Assembly: GCA_964457525.1 (NCBI GenBank)
Contig: CAYWGS010000072.1
Location: forward strand, 1-7,265
Reading direction: 5' to 3'
Length of the DNA stretch: 7,265 nt
DNA from: an uncultured Erysipelotrichaceae bacterium
GTDB taxonomy: Bacteria > Bacillota_I > Bacilli_A > Erysipelotrichales > Erysipelotrichaceae
The position numbers and the translations under genes were made by a program. The notes beneath the pieces were generated by a model. The model did not search any database and was not told the DNA's origin. It saw nothing but the letters and a program-made list of their open reading frames with translations. Below, piece after piece: positions 1 to 7,265 of the stretch (the first letter of the stretch is position 1; each line of letters starts with the position of its first letter).

Positions 1-169
1 CGAAATATGGACCAAAATTATTTAGCGCTTTAATAATTCCATCCACATATCTCTCTTCAATCATTCCTTCTTGCACGAGTGGATAGGCCGCTTGCCTAAT
101 CGCTTCTTCTGGACTGCTTGCTTCAATATCAAGTTGGATCAAGGATTCCGATATTAATTCAACTAGCAT
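1..169 (-). CDS. PTS EIIA component (type-2 EIIA, ascorbate/mannitol/fructose class); N-terminal 56 codons only, gene continues beyond the left edge
   Basis: Absent from the ORF track because it is truncated. Minus-strand translation from ATG 167-169 gives MLVELISESLIQLDIEASSPEEAIRQAAYPLVQEGMIEERYVDGIIKALNNFGPYF. This pattern (L-I-x-L-D, EEAI, Y-V-D-x-I, GPYF) is the usual N-terminus of PTS_EIIA_2 domains such as UlaC/SgaA. A GAGGTG Shine-Dalgarno lies 8 nt upstream. An in-frame TAA lies just upstream with no alternative start codon in between. Confidence 0.7.
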   Translation of the reverse strand, partial: MLVELISESLIQLDIEASSPEEAIRQAAYPLVQEGMIEERYVDGIIKALNNFGPYF

Positions 170-200
170 TCTTTCATCACCTCTATCCGTTTACATTTAC

Positions 201-229
201 AGTTTAACTGTTGTCATTTCAAGATTCAA
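201..229 (-). promoter_or_regulatory. Candidate sigma-A promoter for the PTS EIIA gene
   Basis: Minus strand reads TTGAAT (224-229), a 17-nt spacer, then TAAACT (201-206), about 30 nt upstream of the ATG at 169 and downstream of the SWIM-gene terminator. Hexamer match only. Confidence 0.35.
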
Positions 230-287
230 AGACTTAAGGGTCTTACTTTTGTCCACCATTTTACAAAATTTAAACTCTTGTAATATT

Positions 288-311
288 AAAAAACCGAGTA
301 CATCTCGGTTT
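288..311 (-). terminator. Rho-independent terminator after the msrB-SWIM unit
   Basis: Minus strand reads AAACCGAG-ATGTA-CTCGGTTT followed by more T residues (TTTAATATT). The stem is CCGAG/CTCGG extended by AAA/TTT, 28 nt downstream of the SWIM stop codon (339-341). Confidence 0.75.
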
Positions 312-338
312 AGCTAATTAATCAAAAATAATTCTACT

Positions 339-887
339 TTATGACAAGAATGGAGGTTTAGGACTTTGACTCTTATACCATAGATACGCCATTATCACTA
401 AACGTATATCTTCTGATTCTTCAAGATATTTAAGAATAAACGTTAACAACTCACTTTGATCCTTATTCGATAAGAATTCAACTAAATCAAATGCACCATC
501 TTGATTAATCTCTTTGATAATTGCACGTACATTCTCTTCCATTTCTTCGATATCCACAACTTCACTATCATCTGTCTTAAAATCCAAATCACTGAATTCT
601 GATAGTTCAAACCCATCCTTCACAAGTAGATGCAACAAAGCAGCTCCTGTATGTTTACATAGACCTACACCACGATATGGGCAATCACAGTGCGTGAATG
701 TAACATCATGATCACGTAGTCTTACTTCGACATGATAATAACCACCCCGTTGATTTTCCACATGAAACTGTGCATGTTCATCATCATGATCGAGTAATTT
801 AACTTTGTCATTCTTAACAAGTTCGATGGAACGATTAAGAACTAACGCACGGATTCGTTGAGTAAATAGTCGGATGGGATACGCCAT
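339..887 (-). CDS. SWIM zinc-finger domain protein (182 aa), function unknown
   Basis: The ORF track protein carries the SWIM signature CxCx(n)CxH: C67-D-C69-PYRGVGL-C77-K-H79 (nt 651-689), followed by AALLHLL, which is typical of the family. An acidic stretch (ELSEFSDLDFKTDDSEVVDIEEMEEN) and a helical tail follow. An AAAGAGG Shine-Dalgarno lies 5 nt before the ATG. Confidence 0.8.
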   Translation of the reverse strand: MAYPIRLFTQRIRALVLNRSIELVKNDKVKLLDHDDEHAQFHVENQRGGYYHVEVRLRDHDVTFTHCDCPYRGVGLCKHTGAALLHLLVKDGFELSEFSDLDFKTDDSEVVDIEEMEENVRAIIKEINQDGAFDLVEFLSNKDQSELLTFILKYLEESEDIRLVIMAYLWYKSQSPKPPFLS

Positions 888-901
888 AATAACCTCTTTC
901 T

Positions 902-1324
902 TTATTCAAACAAGGATAGGTATTTTCCATATCCTCTAGCTTCTAAATCTTTCTTTGGAATAAACTCAAGTGATGCGGAGTTAATGCAATAGCGCAATCC
1001 ACCTTTATCTTGTGGACCATCATTAAACACATGACCTAAGTGACTGTTCGCATCCTTAGATCGCACTTCAATTCGAATCATTCCATAACTAAAATCTTTC
1101 TTCTCAATGATATTATCTTCAATTGGTTTAGTAAAACTTGGCCATCCACAATGGGAATCAAACTTATCCAACGAAGAGAATAAAACTTCTTTACTTACAA
1201 CATCCACATAAATCCCTTCTTCAAAAAAATTATAGAATTCATTCTTAAAAGGGGGTTCAGTCGCATTTTTTTGTGTTACTTGAAATTGCATTGGATTTAA
1301 CTTAGATAAATCGTACTTTGACAT
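902..1324 (-). CDS. msrB: Peptide-methionine (R)-S-oxide reductase MsrB
   Basis: Full-length family pattern: [70 protein letters not shown] (catalytic Cys in RYCINS, resolving Cys in SHCGWPSF). Closely resembles Bacillus-type MsrB. A strong AGGAGG Shine-Dalgarno lies 5 nt upstream. Confidence 0.95.
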
Positions 1325-1347
1325 AAATGCCTCCTTATTTATCTAGT

Positions 1348-1377
1348 AGTATACCAGTCGATTCTCCCCTATGGTAA
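1348..1377 (-). promoter_or_regulatory. Candidate extended -10 promoter for msrB-SWIM
   Basis: Minus strand reads TGGTATACT (TGn + TATACT, -10 at 1348-1353) with a weak -35 TTACCA (1372-1377, 18-nt spacer). It sits in the 62-nt gap between the MBL stop and the msrB start. Confidence 0.45.
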
Positions 1378-1386
1378 AACAATGCT

Positions 1387-2013
1387 CTAGAGATGATTCT
1401 TAGGTTCTAAAACCGCTATATGCGAAGCCATTGAACTACGATATTCCATAAATGATTGATGATAATAAACCACATCATAATTCAATAACTTTAAGAAATC
1501 ATCCAATCCACCAATCACATCATACCCAAAACGCTCTGTTCGATAATGCATTGGCACAATCACTTTTGGTTTAATCCGCTTAATCAATTGAACAACATCC
1601 TCTTTATTTAATGTATAATGTCCTCCAATTGGAACCATTAAGACATCAATATTCATCAATAAGTCTAATTCTTCATCTGTTGGCATACATCCAATATCAC
1701 CTAGATGTACACATTTTACTTCTTTATCTTGTAGAATTAATATCTTATTCTTACCTCTTTGAGACCCCATACTTTGATCATGATAACTATTAATTTCAGT
1801 TACTTTAAACGGATTCTCTGAATGCGGTAAAAGACTTACATTCTCTCTTGCATTATGATCCTTGTGTTCATGTGAACAATACACAATATGTGCGGATTCA
1901 TGTACACCTTTTAATCCAGGTACTACATTATCTCCAAATGGATCTAATACAATTAAATAATTATGATAATTTAGTTTAAAAGAAGAGTGCCCTAACCATT
2001 CTATCTTTAACAT
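1387..2013 (-). CDS. MBL-fold metallo-hydrolase (COG2220 / Lactamase_B_3-like, 208 aa)
   Basis: The N-terminus MLKIEWLGHSSFKL..IVLDPF and the metal motif SHEHKDH (HxHxDH), followed by HLGDIG and VPMHY, are the usual order of metal ligands in small UlaG/YtkL-like MBL hydrolases. An AAGGAG Shine-Dalgarno lies 7 nt upstream. Confidence 0.85.
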   Translation of the reverse strand: MLKIEWLGHSSFKLNYHNYLIVLDPFGDNVVPGLKGVHESAHIVYCSHEHKDHNARENVSLLPHSENPFKVTEINSYHDQSMGSQRGKNKILILQDKEVKCVHLGDIGCMPTDEELDLLMNIDVLMVPIGGHYTLNKEDVVQLIKRIKPKVIVPMHYRTERFGYDVIGGLDDFLKLLNYDVVYYHQSFMEYRSSMASHIAVLEPKNHL

Positions 2014-2032
2014 ATATAATCTCCTTACTCAT

Positions 2033-2038
2033 ATTATA
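2033..2038 (-). promoter_or_regulatory. Possible -10 box (TATAAT) for the MBL hydrolase gene
   Basis: A perfect TATAAT on the minus strand lies directly downstream of the terminator T-tract and about 7 nt before the AAGGAG Shine-Dalgarno. No convincing -35, since that region falls inside the terminator stem. The leader would be very short. Confidence 0.3.
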
Positions 2039-2041
2039 CCT

Positions 2042-2066
2042 AAAAAAAACGGGGTTTAACCCGTTT
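2042..2066 (-). terminator. Rho-independent terminator after the CoADR-fusion gene
   Basis: Minus strand reads AAACGGG-TTAAAC-CCCGTTT followed by TTTTTT (A-run 2042-2049 on the plus strand). The stem overlaps the TAA stop at 2065-2067. Confidence 0.8.
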
Positions 2067-4545
2067 AAATAAATAATGTTGTTCCTACGTTTTCGTTATT
2101 AGCGATATAGGTTCCTACACCACCGATTTCAACACCATCAATGAGTTCTTCACGCTTAATACCCATTAAATCCATACTCATTTGACATGCGATGAATTTA
2201 ACCCCAAGATTTTGAGCATTCTTAATCATGACTGGTAATTGATCGACATTCTTGTTCTTCATGATACCTTTGATCATTTTAGGCCCCATACCCAACATAT
2301 TCATATTGGATAACGGAAGTTTATTTGCCCCTCTTGGCATCATGAATCCAAACATACGTTCAATAAAGTTTTTATTTGTTGGAACATTGACATCCTTACG
2401 TAATGCGTTTAATCCCCAGAATGTAAAGAAGATGGATACATGTTTACCTTGAGCTGCTGCACCTTGTGCAATGATCATAGAAGCTAATGCTTTATCAAGT
2501 TCACCTGAGAATAATACAATCGTCGCATTTTCTTGGTTGATATTACTACTTTCTTGACTTATTTTTTTACCTTTTACAATCTCTGCCACATACTTATTAC
2601 CATCTAAGTTCAAGCTAACTAAATCATGCCCATTGGTTCTTGCCCATGCTTGTACATCTGCCGCAAAGCCTGGATCTGTCGCAATAACCTTAACCCCTTC
2701 ACCTTCAGATAAATCTTGTACGGCTTTATAGGTTTCAAGAAGTGGTCCTGGGCATTGTAGTCCAGAGACATCGACTACTTTATTCGTATCACTGGAAATA
2801 CCTTTGGTCATACCCGTTGTTTCATCGACTTTATTGGATTTGGTTAAACCAATCGATGATGAATTTAATTCATACTTATAAGCCTTATATGTTGCATATC
2901 CACCGGATAAGTTATATAAGTTTGTATAACCTAAATTACGCAACATCATTATTGCGACATAAGCACGTAATCCAACTTGGCAGTTTACCACAATTGGCGT
3001 ATCTTTTGATTCACCTAAAAGATGTAGATTTTGACGTAATTGATCAACTTCAAGATTAATCGCACCTGAAATTGCGCCAGTTTGATATTCAATTGGTGTT
3101 CGTACATCTAAGAATAGTGCACCTTGTTTACGTAAATCTTCGATTTGTTGGACATATGCGACTTTATAGTGACCCGCCACAACATTTTCCGCAATGTATC
3201 CCAAGATATTAACAGGGTCTTTAGCGGATGAGAATGGAGGTGCATACGCAAGTTCAAGATCACTTAATTGTGTAACTTTCGCTTTGAGTTTGATTGCGGT
3301 CGCAATGACATCAATACGTTTCTCAGTCCCATCTTGACCAATGGCTTGAGCTCCCAAGATTTCGAGTGTTTCAGGGTTATATACAAGTTTGAAATCAATA
3401 TTCGTTGCGCCAGGATAATAGGACGCATGATTATTACGATGTGCATGAATTGCTTGTACAGGTAGCTTCTTCATTTCTGCAGAACGTTGATTATTGCCTG
3501 TCGTCGCAACTGTTAGATTGAATACTTTTAATACTGAGGTTCCCATTGAACCGTTGTAATGTAAATCTGCCCCATGAATGATATCCGCCACAATTCTACC
3601 TTGACGGTTTGCAGGCCAAGCTAAAGCAATGGCAGTATCGGTATTAGTTACGAAATCCTTAACTTGGATCGCATCCCCAATCGCATAGATTCCTTCCACT
3701 ACTTCTTTGGAATTTAAGTCCAAAGCTTCTAGTTTTGATGTGACCGCAATATGACCACGAGGACCTACCAATAAATCTGCTTTCTTCGCTAATGCATTTT
3801 CAGGAACGACACCAATCGAAAGAATAATCAGTTCAGTTTCTACAGATTTACCACTTTCAAGATGAATGGTTCTACCATTATTCGCAAAACTCATTAATCC
3901 ATCCCCTAAAACTAAATCAATTCCATGCGCATTTAATTCACGATGAACAATTTGAGCCATTTCAAAATCAAGAGGAGCTAATACTTGTGGCATCTTTTCC
4001 ACAAGCGTAACTTTGATTCCTCGTTCAGTTAGATTCTCAGCCATTTCAACACCAATGAATCCACCACCAACTACTACAGCTGTCTTAGGTTTCTTGGTTT
4101 CGATGAAACGATAAATCGCATCGGTATCAGGTATATTTCTTAGTACAAATAAGTTGTTCGCTTCTTTGATTCCTTCAATTGGAGGAAAGATTGGTTTAGC
4201 ACCAGGGGATAGAAGTAATACATCATACGATTCTTGATATGTATCCCCCGTTTTTACTTTTCTTACGGTAACCGTCTTTTCTGCACGATTAATATCCACA
4301 ACTTCAGAGAAGTTACGAATATCTAAATTAAAACGCTCTGACATCCCTTCAACCGTTTGAACCAACAAGTCTTCACGATCTGTAATCACATTCCCGATAT
4401 AGTACGGTAATCCACAGTTTGCGAAACTAATATACTCGTCTCTCTCAAACATGATAATTTCATCTTCTTCACTCAATCTTCTAAGTCTTGCGGCTGCGGT
4501 TGCGCCACCTGCTACGCCACCAACGATTAATATTTTCTTCTTCAT
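2065..4545 (-). CDS. Four-domain CoA-disulfide/persulfide reductase - rhodanese - TusA/SirA-like - DsrE/DsrF-like fusion protein (826 aa)
   Basis: aa 1-455: FAD/NAD(P) disulfide reductase of the CoADR/Nox class (ILIVGGVAGGATAA, SFANC44GLPYY, VVVGGGFIGVEMAE, YAIGDA). aa ~462-556: rhodanese (LFLDVRTPIEY, VVNC522QVGLR). aa ~589-658: TusA-like (VDVSGLQC598PGP). aa ~672-826: DsrE_2-like (TIVLFSGELDKA, FFTFWGLN, FIAC787QMS). The AAAGGA Shine-Dalgarno upstream is moderate. Confidence 0.9.
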   Translation of the reverse strand: MKKKILIVGGVAGGATAAARLRRLSEEDEIIMFERDEYISFANCGLPYYIGNVITDREDLLVQTVEGMSERFNLDIRNFSEVVDINRAEKTVTVRKVKTGDTYQESYDVLLLSPGAKPIFPPIEGIKEANNLFVLRNIPDTDAIYRFIETKKPKTAVVVGGGFIGVEMAENLTERGIKVTLVEKMPQVLAPLDFEMAQIVHRELNAHGIDLVLGDGLMSFANNGRTIHLESGKSVETELIILSIGVVPENALAKKADLLVGPRGHIAVTSKLEALDLNSKEVVEGIYAIGDAIQVKDFVTNTDTAIALAWPANRQGRIVADIIHGADLHYNGSMGTSVLKVFNLTVATTGNNQRSAEMKKLPVQAIHAHRNNHASYYPGATNIDFKLVYNPETLEILGAQAIGQDGTEKRIDVIATAIKLKAKVTQLSDLELAYAPPFSSAKDPVNILGYIAENVVAGHYKVAYVQQIEDLRKQGALFLDVRTPIEYQTGAISGAINLEVDQLRQNLHLLGESKDTPIVVNCQVGLRAYVAIMMLRNLGYTNLYNLSGGYATYKAYKYELNSSSIGLTKSNKVDETTGMTKGISSDTNKVVDVSGLQCPGPLLETYKAVQDLSEGEGVKVIATDPGFAADVQAWARTNGHDLVSLNLDGNKYVAEIVKGKKISQESSNINQENATIVLFSGELDKALASMIIAQGAAAQGKHVSIFFTFWGLNALRKDVNVPTNKNFIERMFGFMMPRGANKLPLSNMNMLGMGPKMIKGIMKNKNVDQLPVMIKNAQNLGVKFIACQMSMDLMGIKREELIDGVEIGGVGTYIANNENVGTTLFI

Positions 4546-4578
4546 GACGATTTTCCTTTTTGCTTAAAGCACAAAAAA

Positions 4579-4607
4579 AGTATAAATCTCAAAAATGTGG
4601 AATTCAA
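4579..4607 (-). promoter_or_regulatory. Candidate sigma-A promoter (proximal) for the CoADR-fusion gene
   Basis: Minus strand reads TTGAAT (4602-4607), a 17-nt spacer, then TATACT (4579-4584), about 34 nt upstream of the ATG at 4545. Confidence 0.5.
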
Positions 4608-4631
4608 TAAGTCTCCAACAAATTTTAGAAA

Positions 4632-4660
4632 TTTATAACATTTTTAGTCTATTTTCACAA
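4632..4660 (-). promoter_or_regulatory. Candidate sigma-A promoter (distal, extended -10) for the CoADR-fusion gene
   Basis: Minus strand reads TTGTGA (4655-4660), a 17-nt spacer ending in TGT, then TATAAA (4632-4637), which gives a TGnTATAAA extended -10. Confidence 0.4.
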
Positions 4661-4688
4661 CTTTTGGAAATTTGAGCCGTCAAACTCG

Positions 4689-5558
4689 TTAAGAAATGAG
4701 ATTATTTAATAAGGGAATAAACTCTTCCATACTATCCAAGGTAAATACACGATCAAATGACTGTGTTTCACCTGTTTTTAGTAATGGTAATACCGAAGGT
4801 TTATGCCAACTGTAATTGTTTTGAATCGAGAAATGATGAACATCATTTGGATTATCACTGAGTAGTACTGTTACTTTACCTAAAGAGTTCATTAGTTTAA
4901 TACGTTGGTACTCTTCCATACCATTATCCGTAGGTCCTACAAAACTTAAATGACCAAATTTAGGATTACTGGATTTACAGATTTTTATCGCATCTTCATC
5001 TTTGAATAGTGGTCCATTCACAAAATGTAGGATTGATACTTCACGTTCTTTTAACTGTTCGTATATTACATGATCGACTACACTTCTATTTTGAATTAAT
5101 AAGGTATAAGGTTGACCAACAAACGTTTCACATAACGCTTTACATTGTTCAATAAATGCATCTTCTCGATTGATGGTGGTCACAATGGATACACGTTTTA
5201 CTTTACGATCGAGTAATGTATTATCTCCACATAAATAGAGGAATAGAGGCGCTTCTTCTTTAAAGTCTTGAAGGATAGCCTTAGGATATTCTTCATCAAA
5301 CTTATGCACGATAAAGACACGTTGTTTTAATCGAGCAAATGCAGCTTCTGTTTCACGCTTAACCAGCTGACAAACTTGTGGAAAATACTGAACAAACTTC
5401 GTACTTTCAAAATAGGTACTATAAAACTTCTGAACATCCAATAGTTCATTGATATTATCTTTTGTGATACGTGTGTTTACTAAAGTGTCATTTTGGACAA
5501 GCTTCTTTAAAACACTGTAGTTAATGGCTAATTTTTTATTTAAACTTGATTTATTCAT
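4689..5558 (-). CDS. Divergent DprA/Smf-like (SLOG/Rossmann-fold) protein, 289 aa, function unknown
   Basis: The size and layout match DprA: a ~95-aa helical N-domain followed by a Rossmann core. Segments are co-linear with DprA blocks: EAPLFLYLCGDNTLL (DprA P-x-L-L-Y-x-x-G-x-x-x-LL), KRVSIVTTIN (A-I-V-G-S-R), YTLLIQNRSVVD (I-V-S-G-x-A-x-G-I-D), EEYQRIKLMNSLG (F-P-x-R-N-R-I-I-x-G-L), VTVLLSD (V-V-V-E-A), HKPSVLPLL (G-R-x-V-F-A-V-P-G). The invariant residues are mostly replaced, so the family call is tentative. The ATG at 5556-5558 overlaps the upstream stop by 8 nt. Confidence 0.6.
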   Translation of the reverse strand: MNKSSLNKKLAINYSVLKKLVQNDTLVNTRITKDNINELLDVQKFYSTYFESTKFVQYFPQVCQLVKRETEAAFARLKQRVFIVHKFDEEYPKAILQDFKEEAPLFLYLCGDNTLLDRKVKRVSIVTTINREDAFIEQCKALCETFVGQPYTLLIQNRSVVDHVIYEQLKEREVSILHFVNGPLFKDEDAIKICKSSNPKFGHLSFVGPTDNGMEEYQRIKLMNSLGKVTVLLSDNPNDVHHFSIQNNYSWHKPSVLPLLKTGETQSFDRVFTLDSMEEFIPLLNNLIS

Positions 5559-6528
5559 AATTTTTAAGTGTCTTCTCTAAGGTTCTCTTCATTTCTTCCT
5601 TAACATCATTCGGCGCAATAACTTTCGCTTTATCTTGGAACTGTATAATCCATGATAAGAAAGTAGGACTGACATAAACTGTCTCACATATATCAAACCA
5701 CTGCTCATCAACCTCAGTTATTTTAACATCTATCCCAAAGCGGTCAATGACCACATTCAATAAATCTTTATGAAAGCGTAGAGTGACTTCTTTTTCATCC
5801 CCACTAAACATATTAAAGAGTTGATCACAATATTTCTCAATGTCTTCAGGCTTCTTATCAATCGAATGTTTTTGAAAGACAACACTGACCTCTCTCATTT
5901 TATCGACACGATATACCACATAATCATCGTGTTGTTCATGGTAGGTAACACAATAATATTTCTCATCATCCCAACATAAGAAAACTGGAATGACGGTATA
6001 GAAATCACCATTCTTACGATACTTCACTTCTTTATGAATATCATAATCAAAGTATTTAAAACGAAGTTTATAATGGCCTAATATCGCATCATGAATCGCA
6101 TCGACATTGAGGTAAACTGAATTATTACGTGTCTTTAATCGACCTGTTACGAGATCATCACGTTGTAATAATTGTGCTTCATGTTTACTGGTTAATGTTT
6201 TTATCTTTTCTATGAGTTCTACACTCTTTGATTGAGTAATAAACTTAGAAAACTTTATCGCATCCACCAAAAGTTTTAACTCAGCTAATTGAAAGTCTCG
6301 ATTCGCAACATGATACCAATTCTGTTTATCTTTCTCAGTAATAATATCTAAACCATAGTCTTCTAAGAGTTGTATGTAATGATAAATACTCTTACGTTCA
6401 CTCTGAATCCCTTTAGACGCTAAATAATCAATGATTTGTTGCGTGGAAATCGCGTGCTTATCATCTGTTTCACGTAAAAGTAGGTCTCGAATCTCTAATA
6501 GTTTTAGTTTATTTTTAGGACTTTCCAT
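5551..6528 (-). CDS. WYL-domain transcriptional regulator (wHTH - WYL - WCX architecture)
   Basis: N-terminal winged HTH: KLKLLEIRDLLLRETDDKHAISTQQIIDYLASKGIQSERKSIYHYIQLLEDYGLDI. WYL-type core: KLRFKYFDY...YTVIPVFLCWDDEKYYCVTYHEQHDDYVVYRVDKMREV (the YRVDKM corresponds to the family FRLDRI motif). C-terminal WCX-like region: FLSWIIQFQDKAKVIAPNDVKEEM. I place the start at ATG 6526-6528 (MESPKNKLKLL, the usual N-terminus of this family). The ORF track start at 6564 is a TTG that coincides with a -35 hexamer and has no Shine-Dalgarno. Confidence 0.85.
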   Translation of the reverse strand: MESPKNKLKLLEIRDLLLRETDDKHAISTQQIIDYLASKGIQSERKSIYHYIQLLEDYGLDIITEKDKQNWYHVANRDFQLAELKLLVDAIKFSKFITQSKSVELIEKIKTLTSKHEAQLLQRDDLVTGRLKTRNNSVYLNVDAIHDAILGHYKLRFKYFDYDIHKEVKYRKNGDFYTVIPVFLCWDDEKYYCVTYHEQHDDYVVYRVDKMREVSVVFQKHSIDKKPEDIEKYCDQLFNMFSGDEKEVTLRFHKDLLNVVIDRFGIDVKITEVDEQWFDICETVYVSPTFLSWIIQFQDKAKVIAPNDVKEEMKRTLEKTLKNYE

Positions 6529-6535
6529 ATGGATT

Positions 6536-6564
6536 ATTGTACACTGTTTGTGAAATACTCTCAA
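6536..6564 (-). promoter_or_regulatory. Candidate sigma-A promoter of the WYL/DprA-like operon (predicts a leaderless mRNA)
   Basis: Minus strand reads TTGAGA (6559-6564), a 17-nt spacer, TACAAT (6536-6541), 7 nt (AATCCAT), then ATG (6526-6528). Confidence 0.5.
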
Positions 6565-6588
6565 TAAAAAACAAGTTTTTGACTTGTT
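6565..6588 (-). terminator. Weak rho-independent terminator / inverted repeat after the membrane-protein gene
   Basis: Minus strand reads AACAAGT-CAAAA-ACTTGTT followed by TTTTATT. The 7-bp stem has only two G:C pairs and overlaps the TAA stop (6587-6589). Confidence 0.4.
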
Positions 6589-7231
6589 AGTGGAGATTTA
6601 GTGCTTTTCTCCAATACTTCGAGAAGAATGCGATTAAACTACCAACCGTAAACGCAAAGATAACAGTCCCTTCTCGAACAGGTGCATACGGAAGCGCAAA
6701 TGCCCATGTCATGAATAAAGATGAAAGGACAAATAAGAAATCTGCACCGGTTCGAACCTTGATAAATGGAATCTTAAAATGTTCAGAAAACACAACAATA
6801 AATGCATCATAGGGTAGTACAACTAACTTAACACTCATCATTAAACTTACCCCCAGTGACATCATCACAATGCCAATGAGTAGAGCGATAACTTGAAATC
6901 CATAATTGGATAAATTTAATTGAGCAATAAAGCTAAAGTCATAAAGAAAGAAGTTTACGATATTTCCAAATACTAAACTTAACAAAGGTTGTAGGATTAA
7001 AATGGGTTTAACTTTCTTACCGAGTAATATTAACTCAAAAACAAAGCATAATAAATTAAAGTAGATTAACACAGTTCCTGCTTTGATATTGATGACATGT
7101 GCTAATGCATTGGTAAAGCCTGAAACAGTGCTTTGACCTAGATTTGCTTTAATGATTAATGACATACCAAAGCCAATCATAGCGATCGCAATTAATGTAT
7201 AAACTAAATGAATTAAGAATTTTTTTTGCAC
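6587..7231 (-). CDS. YczE/YyaS/YitT-family (DUF6198-like) integral membrane protein, 214 aa
   Basis: About six hydrophobic segments. The N-terminal pattern LIAIAMIGFGMSLIIKANLGQS is characteristic of the YczE/YitT family (G-x-x-L-x-I-K-A-x-L-G). The start codon is GTG (7229-7231), with a GAGGT Shine-Dalgarno 6 nt upstream. Confidence 0.75.
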   Translation of the reverse strand: MQKKFLIHLVYTLIAIAMIGFGMSLIIKANLGQSTVSGFTNALAHVINIKAGTVLIYFNLLCFVFELILLGKKVKPILILQPLLSLVFGNIVNFFLYDFSFIAQLNLSNYGFQVIALLIGIVMMSLGVSLMMSVKLVVLPYDAFIVVFSEHFKIPFIKVRTGADFLFVLSSLFMTWAFALPYAPVREGTVIFAFTVGSLIAFFSKYWRKALNLH

Positions 7232-7265
7232 ACGATTACCTCAAACCTATATAGCACTATATCAT

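Follow-up and report, generated by a model that had tools for sequence, protein, structure and literature searches.

A WYL regulator gene overlapping a degenerate DprA-like gene as a clade-specific pair in uncultured Erysipelotrichaceae

WYL regulators such as DriD, PafBC and CapW are actively studied as sensors of single-stranded DNA (ssDNA), and DprA paralogues such as ShosA and PsyrA as antitoxins. Sensing of ssDNA was reported for DriD (PMC9186387), CapW (PMC11662680) and PafBC (PMC11804915). On the DprA side, ShosA binds RecA (PMC12961424) and pneumococcal DprA shuts off ComE~P (PMC7665891). Here we describe a locus that joins the two families. In a 7,265-nucleotide stretch of DNA from an uncultured Erysipelotrichaceae bacterium (GenBank assembly GCA_964457525.1, contig CAYWGS010000072.1, positions 1 to 7,265; the whole stretch is referred to below as the window), the gene of a WYL transcription factor overlaps that of a 289-aa degenerate DprA-like protein. 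Both parts are known separately; what is new here is the fixed pairing of a WYL regulator of the DriD/CapW type with a cargo derived from DprA, and a literature search for WYL with DprA or with SLOG found no paper describing the pairing. The initial annotation of the locus had recognised no named defence or repair system in it, and none was matched in our analysis: PADLOC returned only short, weak PsyrA and ShosA matches, and no phosphoribosyltransferase (PRTase) toxin gene was found adjacent to the pair.

The overlapping WYL and DprA-like genes

All seven genes of the window were found to be co-directional on the minus strand. The features of the pair are as follows.

5551-6528, minus strand: WYL transcription factor gene, 325 aa, with the start selected by orthologue alignment
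6319-6528, minus strand: N-terminal ~70 residues of the WYL protein, presumed winged helix-turn-helix (wHTH) DNA-binding domain, from family architecture and homologues
5884-6105, minus strand: WYL ligand-sensing domain (PF13280, residues 154-227 of the 337-aa open reading frame)
5569-5790, minus strand: WCX C-terminal dimerisation-type domain (PF25583, residues 259-332 of the 337-aa open reading frame)
5551-5558, minus strand: junction ATGAATAA, 8-nt overlap of the DprA-like start codon with the WYL stop codon
4689-5558, minus strand: degenerate DprA/ShosA-like gene, 289 aa
5334-5558, minus strand: N-terminal helical, SAM-like domain of the DprA-like protein, residues 1-75 (five or six helices, H3-75, in the AlphaFold2 model)
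4692-5327, minus strand: Rossmann/SLOG domain with degenerate phosphate-binding loops, residues 78-289 (AlphaFold2 model, Foldseek and motif alignment)

The reverse complement of 5551-5558 reads ATGAATAA, in which the WYL stop codon TAA (5553-5551) and the DprA-like start codon ATG (5558-5556) are both contained; the WYL gene ends in TAT GAA TAA and the DprA-like gene opens with ATG AAT AAA. This reading bears out the 8-nt stop/start overlap described in the initial annotation. The junction coordinates given there stand, and both genes, for which no strand had been stated, lie on the minus strand; the WYL start has to be moved. The longest WYL open reading frame (337 aa) is open as far as TTG 6564, but the true start is probably ATG 6528-6526 (MESPKNK...), because that is where the orthologues begin and where their genes are called (325 aa).

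The second gene had also been said to lack a good Shine-Dalgarno sequence of its own, and this was found to be correct. The 25 nt before its ATG hold no Shine-Dalgarno, and the best anti-Shine-Dalgarno duplex in the -22 to -4 region was -2.9 kcal/mol, compared to -8.5 to -9.8 kcal/mol in lineages in which the two genes are separated by a gap. In most overlapping orthologues the duplex energy in the same region was only -0.9 to -2.1 kcal/mol. Overlap, absence of an own Shine-Dalgarno and a conserved arrangement, the features by which a translationally coupled pair is recognised, were all found for the WYL and DprA-like genes. These features suggest that the two genes are translationally coupled, with reinitiation itself being a prediction.

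A single internal promoter-like site precedes the DprA-like gene. It consists of TTGACC-16-TAAAAT with an upstream TG (5720-5747, minus strand), and lies within the WYL gene, 160 nt ahead of the DprA-like start. This sigma-70-like site (5747-5720) was rejected as a promoter of the DprA-like gene on the ground that it is not conserved in the orthologues, and it is probably a chance match. The WYL and DprA-like genes form a self-contained operon, because they have a promoter of their own and a hairpin upstream (both described below), and the internal promoter-like site is unconserved. An Rfam scan of the window revealed no riboswitch and no other RNA family, and a tRNA scan of the window found none.

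The product of the first gene is, by its domain matches, a transcription factor with WYL and WCX domains of the DriD/CapW/BrxR/PafBC family, with a presumed wHTH. The Pfam scores were 35.7 bits for WYL (cut-off 21.8) and 31.8 bits for WCX (cut-off 23.9). The PADLOC WYL model was matched at E=2.2e-24, and CRISPR-associated WYL models were matched as well. At the N-terminus only FokI_D3, a wHTH, was detected, below threshold (12.9 bits); homologues carry precomputed PF16902 or PF08279 matches, and an N-terminal wHTH belongs to the DriD/CapW family architecture (PMC9186387, PMC11662680). As a single query the WYL protein matched no solved structure. A profile of 36 WYL homologues matched the DriD structures 7u02 and 8tp8 at E of about 1e-9 and PafBC weakly; with neither the protein nor the homologue profile was a sequence-level match to the CapW and BrxR structures obtained. 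The equivalents of the DriD ssDNA contacts Y192 (the Tyr of the WYL motif) and R207 were invariant in the 36 homologues, that of W206 was Tyr, and those of R204 and K202 were unconserved; the alignment used for this comparison (contacts per PMC9186387) leaves out Y168, R176 and R178. The WYL family is very large, with >7,300 matches at E<1e-10, some of them named 'YafY family' in their source. The scores above the Pfam cut-offs and the DriD match agree with the identification of a WYL regulator in the initial annotation.

Profile searches and a structural model both indicate that the 289-aa protein is DprA/SLOG-derived, with a SAM-like N-domain and a DprA-type Rossmann domain. Residues 79-147 matched Pfam DNA_processg_A (PF02481) with 19.4 bits (E=6.4e-4), so that the gathering threshold of 29.6 bits was not reached, and an NCBIfam scan gave no match. 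PADLOC matches were short and weak: PsyrA at E=1.2e-7 (residues 79-126) and ShosA at E=7e-4 (residues 79-153), both with models that have no curated cut-off. When the single sequence and the family profile were searched against PDB sequences, ShosA was the only hit, and a marginal one (E=0.05). A HMMER search of 1.84 billion representatives with the family profile returned 7 family members at E<=1e-10, followed by 44 matches at E 1e-8 to 1e-3; all eight profile matches that were scanned (P0028-P0035, E 1e-8 to 1e-6) pass Pfam DprA. A phage protein family with no assigned function, phrog_4299, matches residues 14-150 (5109-5519 of the window, minus strand) at E=3.6e-5.

The AlphaFold2 model, made from 65 aligned sequences with distant DprA proteins among them, had a predicted local distance difference test score (pLDDT) of 90.1 and a predicted template modelling score (pTM) of 0.86. 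With this model Foldseek returned ShosA (8zva) as the best match, over the full length (E=1.3e-12, template modelling scores 0.62/0.59), followed by the DprA proteins of H. pylori and S. pneumoniae (E about 1e-9) and of R. palustris, the four matches spanning E 1e-12 to 1e-8. Other proteins with the SLOG-type Rossmannoid fold, the Moco carrier protein (2iz5, 6y01), TM1055 (1rcu) and LOG proteins, came after DprA (E 1e-4 to 1e-2, probability 0.99-1.0), and a search of viral predicted structures found nothing below E=1e-3. ShosA and S. pneumoniae DprA, which align with the model over their full length, carry N-terminal SAM domains. The link to DprA by sequence profile is independent of the AlphaFold2 model. 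Profile and structure searches are in line with the DprA/SLOG origin put forward in the initial annotation, and no unrelated fold was obtained. Seventeen of the 22 family-invariant residues fall within residues 1-118, that is, in the SAM-like domain and the first Rossmann strands.

Loss of the DprA motifs and the sister clade

When the window subfamily was aligned with Pfam-positive DprA proteins, the canonical VGSRN of the GSR loop was found to be replaced by VTTIN, the SGGARGxD loop by QNRSVVD and the GGTW/SGS loop by N-DVH. The GSR arginine (R52 of H. pylori DprA, R139 of ShosA) aligns to I129 of the window protein (VTTINRE). ShosA with the R139E substitution is inactive as an antitoxin, and ssDNA binding is lost in double mutants that include R139E (PMC12961424). 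The initial annotation had described a DprA/Smf layout with degenerate motifs, which the sub-threshold Pfam score and the three loop replacements substantiate. It had further supposed a nucleic-acid- or nucleotide-binding partner, which is doubtful here, as neither the phosphate-binding loops nor the GSR arginine is kept.

The ratio of nonsynonymous to synonymous substitution (dN/dS) between orthologues was 0.02-0.07, for the WYL and DprA-like genes alike. By this measure both genes are under strong purifying selection and the DprA-like gene is not decaying. Strong selection on a sequence that has none of the canonical motifs points to a changed rather than a decaying function.

The arrangement of the junction differs between lineages. 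The identical ATGAATAA octamer was found in 9 orthologous loci; every 289-aa orthologue has it, as far down as a protein identity of about 70%. Other overlaps were 14 nt in 294-aa lineages, 11 nt in a 293-aa lineage and 4 nt in another 294-aa lineage, and the Shine-Dalgarno duplex energies of these 294- and 293-aa lineages were mostly negligible. Compared across these loci, the overlap is conserved beyond chance. In the 298-aa clade, the two genes are separated by gaps of 14-51 nt and the DprA-like gene has a GTG start and a strong Shine-Dalgarno (-8.5 to -9.8 kcal/mol). An overlapping stop/start in homologues, asked about in the initial annotation, is accordingly a property of the motif-degenerate clade, and does not extend to the 298-aa clade with its gap and strong Shine-Dalgarno.

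The 298-aa clade also keeps the GSR, SG..D and GGS motifs, GSR being kept nowhere else in the family, and passes Pfam DprA (67.9 bits for P0025, the others by precomputed PF02481 matches); NCBI gives one member the name DprA. In a rough neighbour-joining tree rooted on DprA outgroups, the family was monophyletic and its first split separated the 298-aa clade from the degenerate, overlapping clade. Because the clade with motifs, gap and Shine-Dalgarno is the sister in this tree, motif loss and the stop/start overlap map to the same branch and, on this phylogeny, arose together. One small clade thus holds a natural series, from a motif-retaining DprA with its own Shine-Dalgarno to a motif-less fold locked to a regulator, with strong purifying selection on either branch.

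Promoter, distribution and neighbourhood

The features at the upstream boundary of the operon and in the surrounding genes are as follows.

6559-6564, minus strand: -35 hexamer TTGAGA of the WYL/DprA-like operon promoter (promoter scan)
6536-6541, minus strand: -10 hexamer TACAAT, inside a palindrome-like TGTACA / TTGTACAAT motif (promoter scan and orthologue comparison)
6565-6586, minus strand: hairpin AACAAGT/ACTTGTT with a T-run, likely a terminator and the 5' limit of the operon (inverted-repeat search)
6587-7231, minus strand: YczE/DUF6198-like membrane protein gene, directly upstream of the operon in 289-aa lineages only
2065-4545, minus strand: CoA-disulfide reductase (CoADR)/rhodanese/TusA/DsrE fusion gene, 826 aa, downstream of the pair in every lineage
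L009/L010 about 5000-5033 and L004 about 2850-2890: leadered WYL starts in these orthologous loci (orthologue comparison)
L015 11519-14286, L016 11803-14578 and L018 2006-4773: CoADR-fusion regions in 298-aa lineages

The operon promoter TTGAGA-17-TACAAT matches 10 of 12 consensus positions, in a scan of the window in which the total count of promoter-like sites equalled the shuffled expectation. A TTGnnn at 17-bp spacing is recurrent in the orthologues. The -10 hexamer ends 7 nt ahead of the WYL ATG, and for this reason the operon mRNA of the window is probably leaderless. In the closest relatives of the window the WYL gene also appears to be leaderless (window region 6526-6564, minus strand). 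In L009 and L010, orthologues of only ~80% identity, and in the more distant L004, L017 and L016, the WYL gene has a leader of 15-30 nt in which the Shine-Dalgarno is GAGG or GGGGG. As the leadered form is found in orthologues only ~80% identical, the switch between the leaderless and leadered forms falls within a narrow clade.

The (T)TGTACAAT motif upstream of the WYL gene is kept in all lineages examined but one, L015, which carries TATAGAAT. The TTGTACAAT motif at the -10 is the sole deeply conserved upstream element, and its conservation is inseparable from promoter constraint. A TTATTG-N22-CAATAA repeat flanking the window promoter was considered as an operator and rejected, being kept only in close relatives. 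The hairpin at 6565-6586 lies directly after the stop codon of the upstream yczE-like gene, and its conservation extends to L001 and L008-L014; having too few G-C pairs, it escaped a stricter terminator scan.

Among 5.8 billion proteins, the partner family amounts to only 34 clusters (90% identity). Among species-representative genomes there were 7 matches, all in metagenome-assembled genomes, of which 5 are labelled Erysipelotrichaceae, 1 'Bacillota bacterium' and 1 metagenome chromosome; a 2.0-Mb chromosome is among the genomes matched. A WYL gene was found immediately upstream in every locus recovered, over a range of partner identity to the window protein from 91% to 31%, and the conserved linkage asked about in the initial annotation is established to that depth. 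At the deep splits, the WYL proteins are 50-63% identical, compared to 31-43% for their partners. In three outgroup WYL loci (45-46% identity), a profile search found no DprA-like open reading frame. The outgroup WYL genes are next to a GNAT gene and an ATPase_2/DUF234 gene, in a mobile-element-like setting, or to a helicase gene and proteins of no known family. In one such locus (L021, 5001-8327), a widespread WYL relative (45% identity, 577 member sequences) shares 11 nt with a GNAT acetyltransferase gene, with ATPase_2/DUF234 next and SSB, HTH-peptidase M78 and sigma factor genes in mobile-element-like surroundings; it may be an unrelated WYL-controlled cassette.

The surroundings of the pair are syntenic, with the CoADR fusion downstream and either M20 peptidase and PAS_10 genes or a yczE-like gene upstream, and GC content is uniform across the locus. 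In the window, L001, L004, L017 and L020, the CoADR gene follows the pair directly, after a gap of about 120-145 nt. An ArsR/HTH_5 regulator gene precedes the CoADR fusion only in 298-aa lineages (L015, L016, L018, L019), and none is present in the window lineage. A tblastn search with the 289-aa protein against 50,697 phage and 72,556 plasmid records found nothing. Because the outgroup WYL loci have no DprA-like open reading frame, the locus is syntenic and phage and plasmid matches are absent, the pairing is clade-specific and looks vertically inherited, unlike a typical defence island. Elsewhere in the window, a 182-aa open reading frame (339-887, minus strand) gave only a sub-threshold SWIM zinc-finger match; it adjoins msrB in L001 and L017. 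In L001, the closest long contig, a 105-aa gene (3296-3613) with a weak match to TfoX_N, a competence-regulator N-domain, was observed about 5.4 kb upstream of the pair.

Possible functions and comparison with known systems

Taken together, the identities of the two proteins, their pairing, the overlap, the selection, the motif loss and the clade restriction were observed; onto these we put a proposed ligand, direction of regulation and target of the partner. The reading that we favour, with a probability of roughly 0.45, is that of a clade-specific, ssDNA-responsive and autoregulated two-gene operon whose pseudo-DprA output acts through protein contacts. The WYL factor would repress its own operon by binding to the promoter, which is near consensus and probably leaderless, and ssDNA from damage or invading DNA would bind the WYL domain and release the factor from the promoter. 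Both proteins would then be made together by termination-reinitiation. An autorepressed, ssDNA-inducible operon is proposed because ssDNA is what the solved WYL factors sense and the promoter is close to consensus; such a promoter, judged by its hexamers, fits repression better than activator dependence. The pseudo-DprA would work by protein-protein contacts and not as a classical ssDNA-binding RecA loader, since the ssDNA-binding arginine and the phosphate loops are gone and the SAM-like domain is highly conserved. Candidate partners would be RecA, by analogy with ShosA and DprA, or else the WYL factor, in a feedback like that of DprA on ComE~P.

Several points weigh against this reading. When AlphaFold2 was given a family-only alignment of 12 sequences, the pLDDT was 42, and the alignment behind the high-scoring model held true DprA proteins, which biases it toward the DprA fold, so that the model is not independent evidence. 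The equivalent of DriD R204 is a valine in the window WYL protein, and a WYL factor of Lactiplantibacillus senses c-di-GMP (PMC11880434). The operator search in the orthologues found nothing conserved beyond the -10-overlapping TTGTACAA. On the side of the partner, R218 of the window protein aligns with the RN-motif arginine (R143 of H. pylori DprA, R234 of ShosA), a column occupied by H, D, S or G in the other family members, and the window protein may through this residue bind DNA to some extent. Related WYL genes also overlap unrelated cargo, and for that reason the overlap alone is no argument for a protein complex.

The degenerate DprA could also be a dedicated cofactor of the WYL protein, having given up canonical DNA binding and docking on the regulator or handing over RecA/ssDNA filaments. 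We consider this doubtful; if true, the two proteins would form a transcription switch that senses ssDNA, and Erysipelotrichaceae would have a DNA-damage response that is lineage-specific and SOS-independent. A recombination mediator would then have been turned into a signalling subunit, and translational coupling would have evolved alongside motif loss. The broader impact is modest unless such a regulator-cofactor mechanism is demonstrated, as the family is very small and confined to uncultured organisms. The role of a DprA fold after loss of its usual ssDNA binding is nevertheless a question that the locus makes testable with two proteins and one promoter.

The initial annotation had placed the pair among conflict systems as a sensor-effector cassette. 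In its explicit form, this is an anti-phage or abortive-infection module in which a CapW/BrxR-type WYL repressor silences a DprA-like effector or antitoxin until phage-derived ssDNA appears. Such a module would be related to ShosTA/PsyrTA, but toxin-less or cryptic. Defence operons commonly begin with a WYL repressor gene (PMC11662680), DprA homologues serve as antitoxins in shosTA, psyrTA and rqlHI (PMC9122126), and the structural match closest to the 289-aa protein is an antitoxin, in keeping with its PADLOC hits to PsyrA (E=1.2e-7) and ShosA (E=7e-4) and those of the WYL protein to CRISPR-associated models. These PADLOC matches of the partner span only 48-75 residues, however, and an effector domain cannot be recognised in it. 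Next to the pair lie the genes of a membrane protein and of the CoADR fusion, and neither a PRTase, a helicase nor any other toxin gene. The position is syntenic across deep divergence with uniform, compositionally ordinary GC, the family is vertical in one clade rather than patchily spread, and the 50,697 phage and 72,556 plasmid records hold no match. While the sensor-effector framing as such is plausible, this context disfavours a conflict system, and we regard an anti-phage module as unlikely.

An ordinary DprA, that is, a RecA loader for transformation or recombination that evolves fast under a WYL regulator, is improbable as well. Its size and two-domain layout are those of Bacillota DprA, and S. 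pneumoniae DprA aligns with it over the full length. Its sister clade of 298-aa proteins, one of which NCBI names DprA, has kept GSR and passes the Pfam DprA threshold (67.9 bits). Against an ordinary DprA stand, for the window protein, the Pfam score of 19.4 against 29.6 bits, the lack of an NCBIfam match, an isoelectric point of about 7 and the replacement of both glycine-rich loops and of the GSR arginine, whose change in ShosA (R139E) abolishes antitoxin activity. Moreover, purifying selection in the absence of canonical motifs implies changed function, not decay. Regulation by the pair of the neighbouring sulfur-stress CoADR-rhodanese-TusA-DsrE gene, in place of an ArsR-type regulator where this is absent, was also considered, and is very improbable. 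All lineages have the CoADR fusion downstream of the pair, with an ArsR/HTH_5 gene in front of the fusion only in L015, L016, L018 and L019; the window, L001, L004, L017 and L020 show direct adjacency. This synteny is equally explained by vertical inheritance, extra genes lie between the pair and CoADR in L015 and L016, and the window has no further copy of the TGTACAAT motif ahead of CoADR. WYL and DprA proteins are not known to take part in persulfide sensing.

The closest solved relative of the first gene is DriD of Caulobacter crescentus, with which it shares the WYL and WCX domains, the equivalents of Y192 and R207 and a length of about 325 aa; its place immediately ahead of a presumed cargo resembles that of CapW and BrxR. 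It differs from DriD, CapW, BrxR and PafBC in that its cargo in the window is a DprA-like gene, and the equivalent of DriD R204 is not kept. The 289-aa protein has in common with ShosA, the antitoxin of ShosTA, a SAM-like N-domain, a DprA Rossmann domain and a C-terminal helix. Its profile matches to ShosA and PsyrA are weak, and it is probably, like ShosA, a DprA paralogue other than the transformation protein. In contrast to ShosTA, PsyrTA and RqlI, no PRTase or helicase toxin gene adjoins the pair, either in the window (by Pfam) or in related loci. The equivalent of ShosA R139 is Ile, the locus is chromosomal and syntenic and not a phage or defence hotspot, and the partner gene encodes a transcription factor. 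With canonical DprA/Smf of S. pneumoniae and H. pylori the protein shares the fold, the domain order, a length of about 290 aa and the YP...AP.FLY.G entry motif; in contrast to them it scores below the Pfam threshold, has lost GSR, SGGARGxD and GGT/SGS, is partnered with a WYL regulator and occurs in one clade only.

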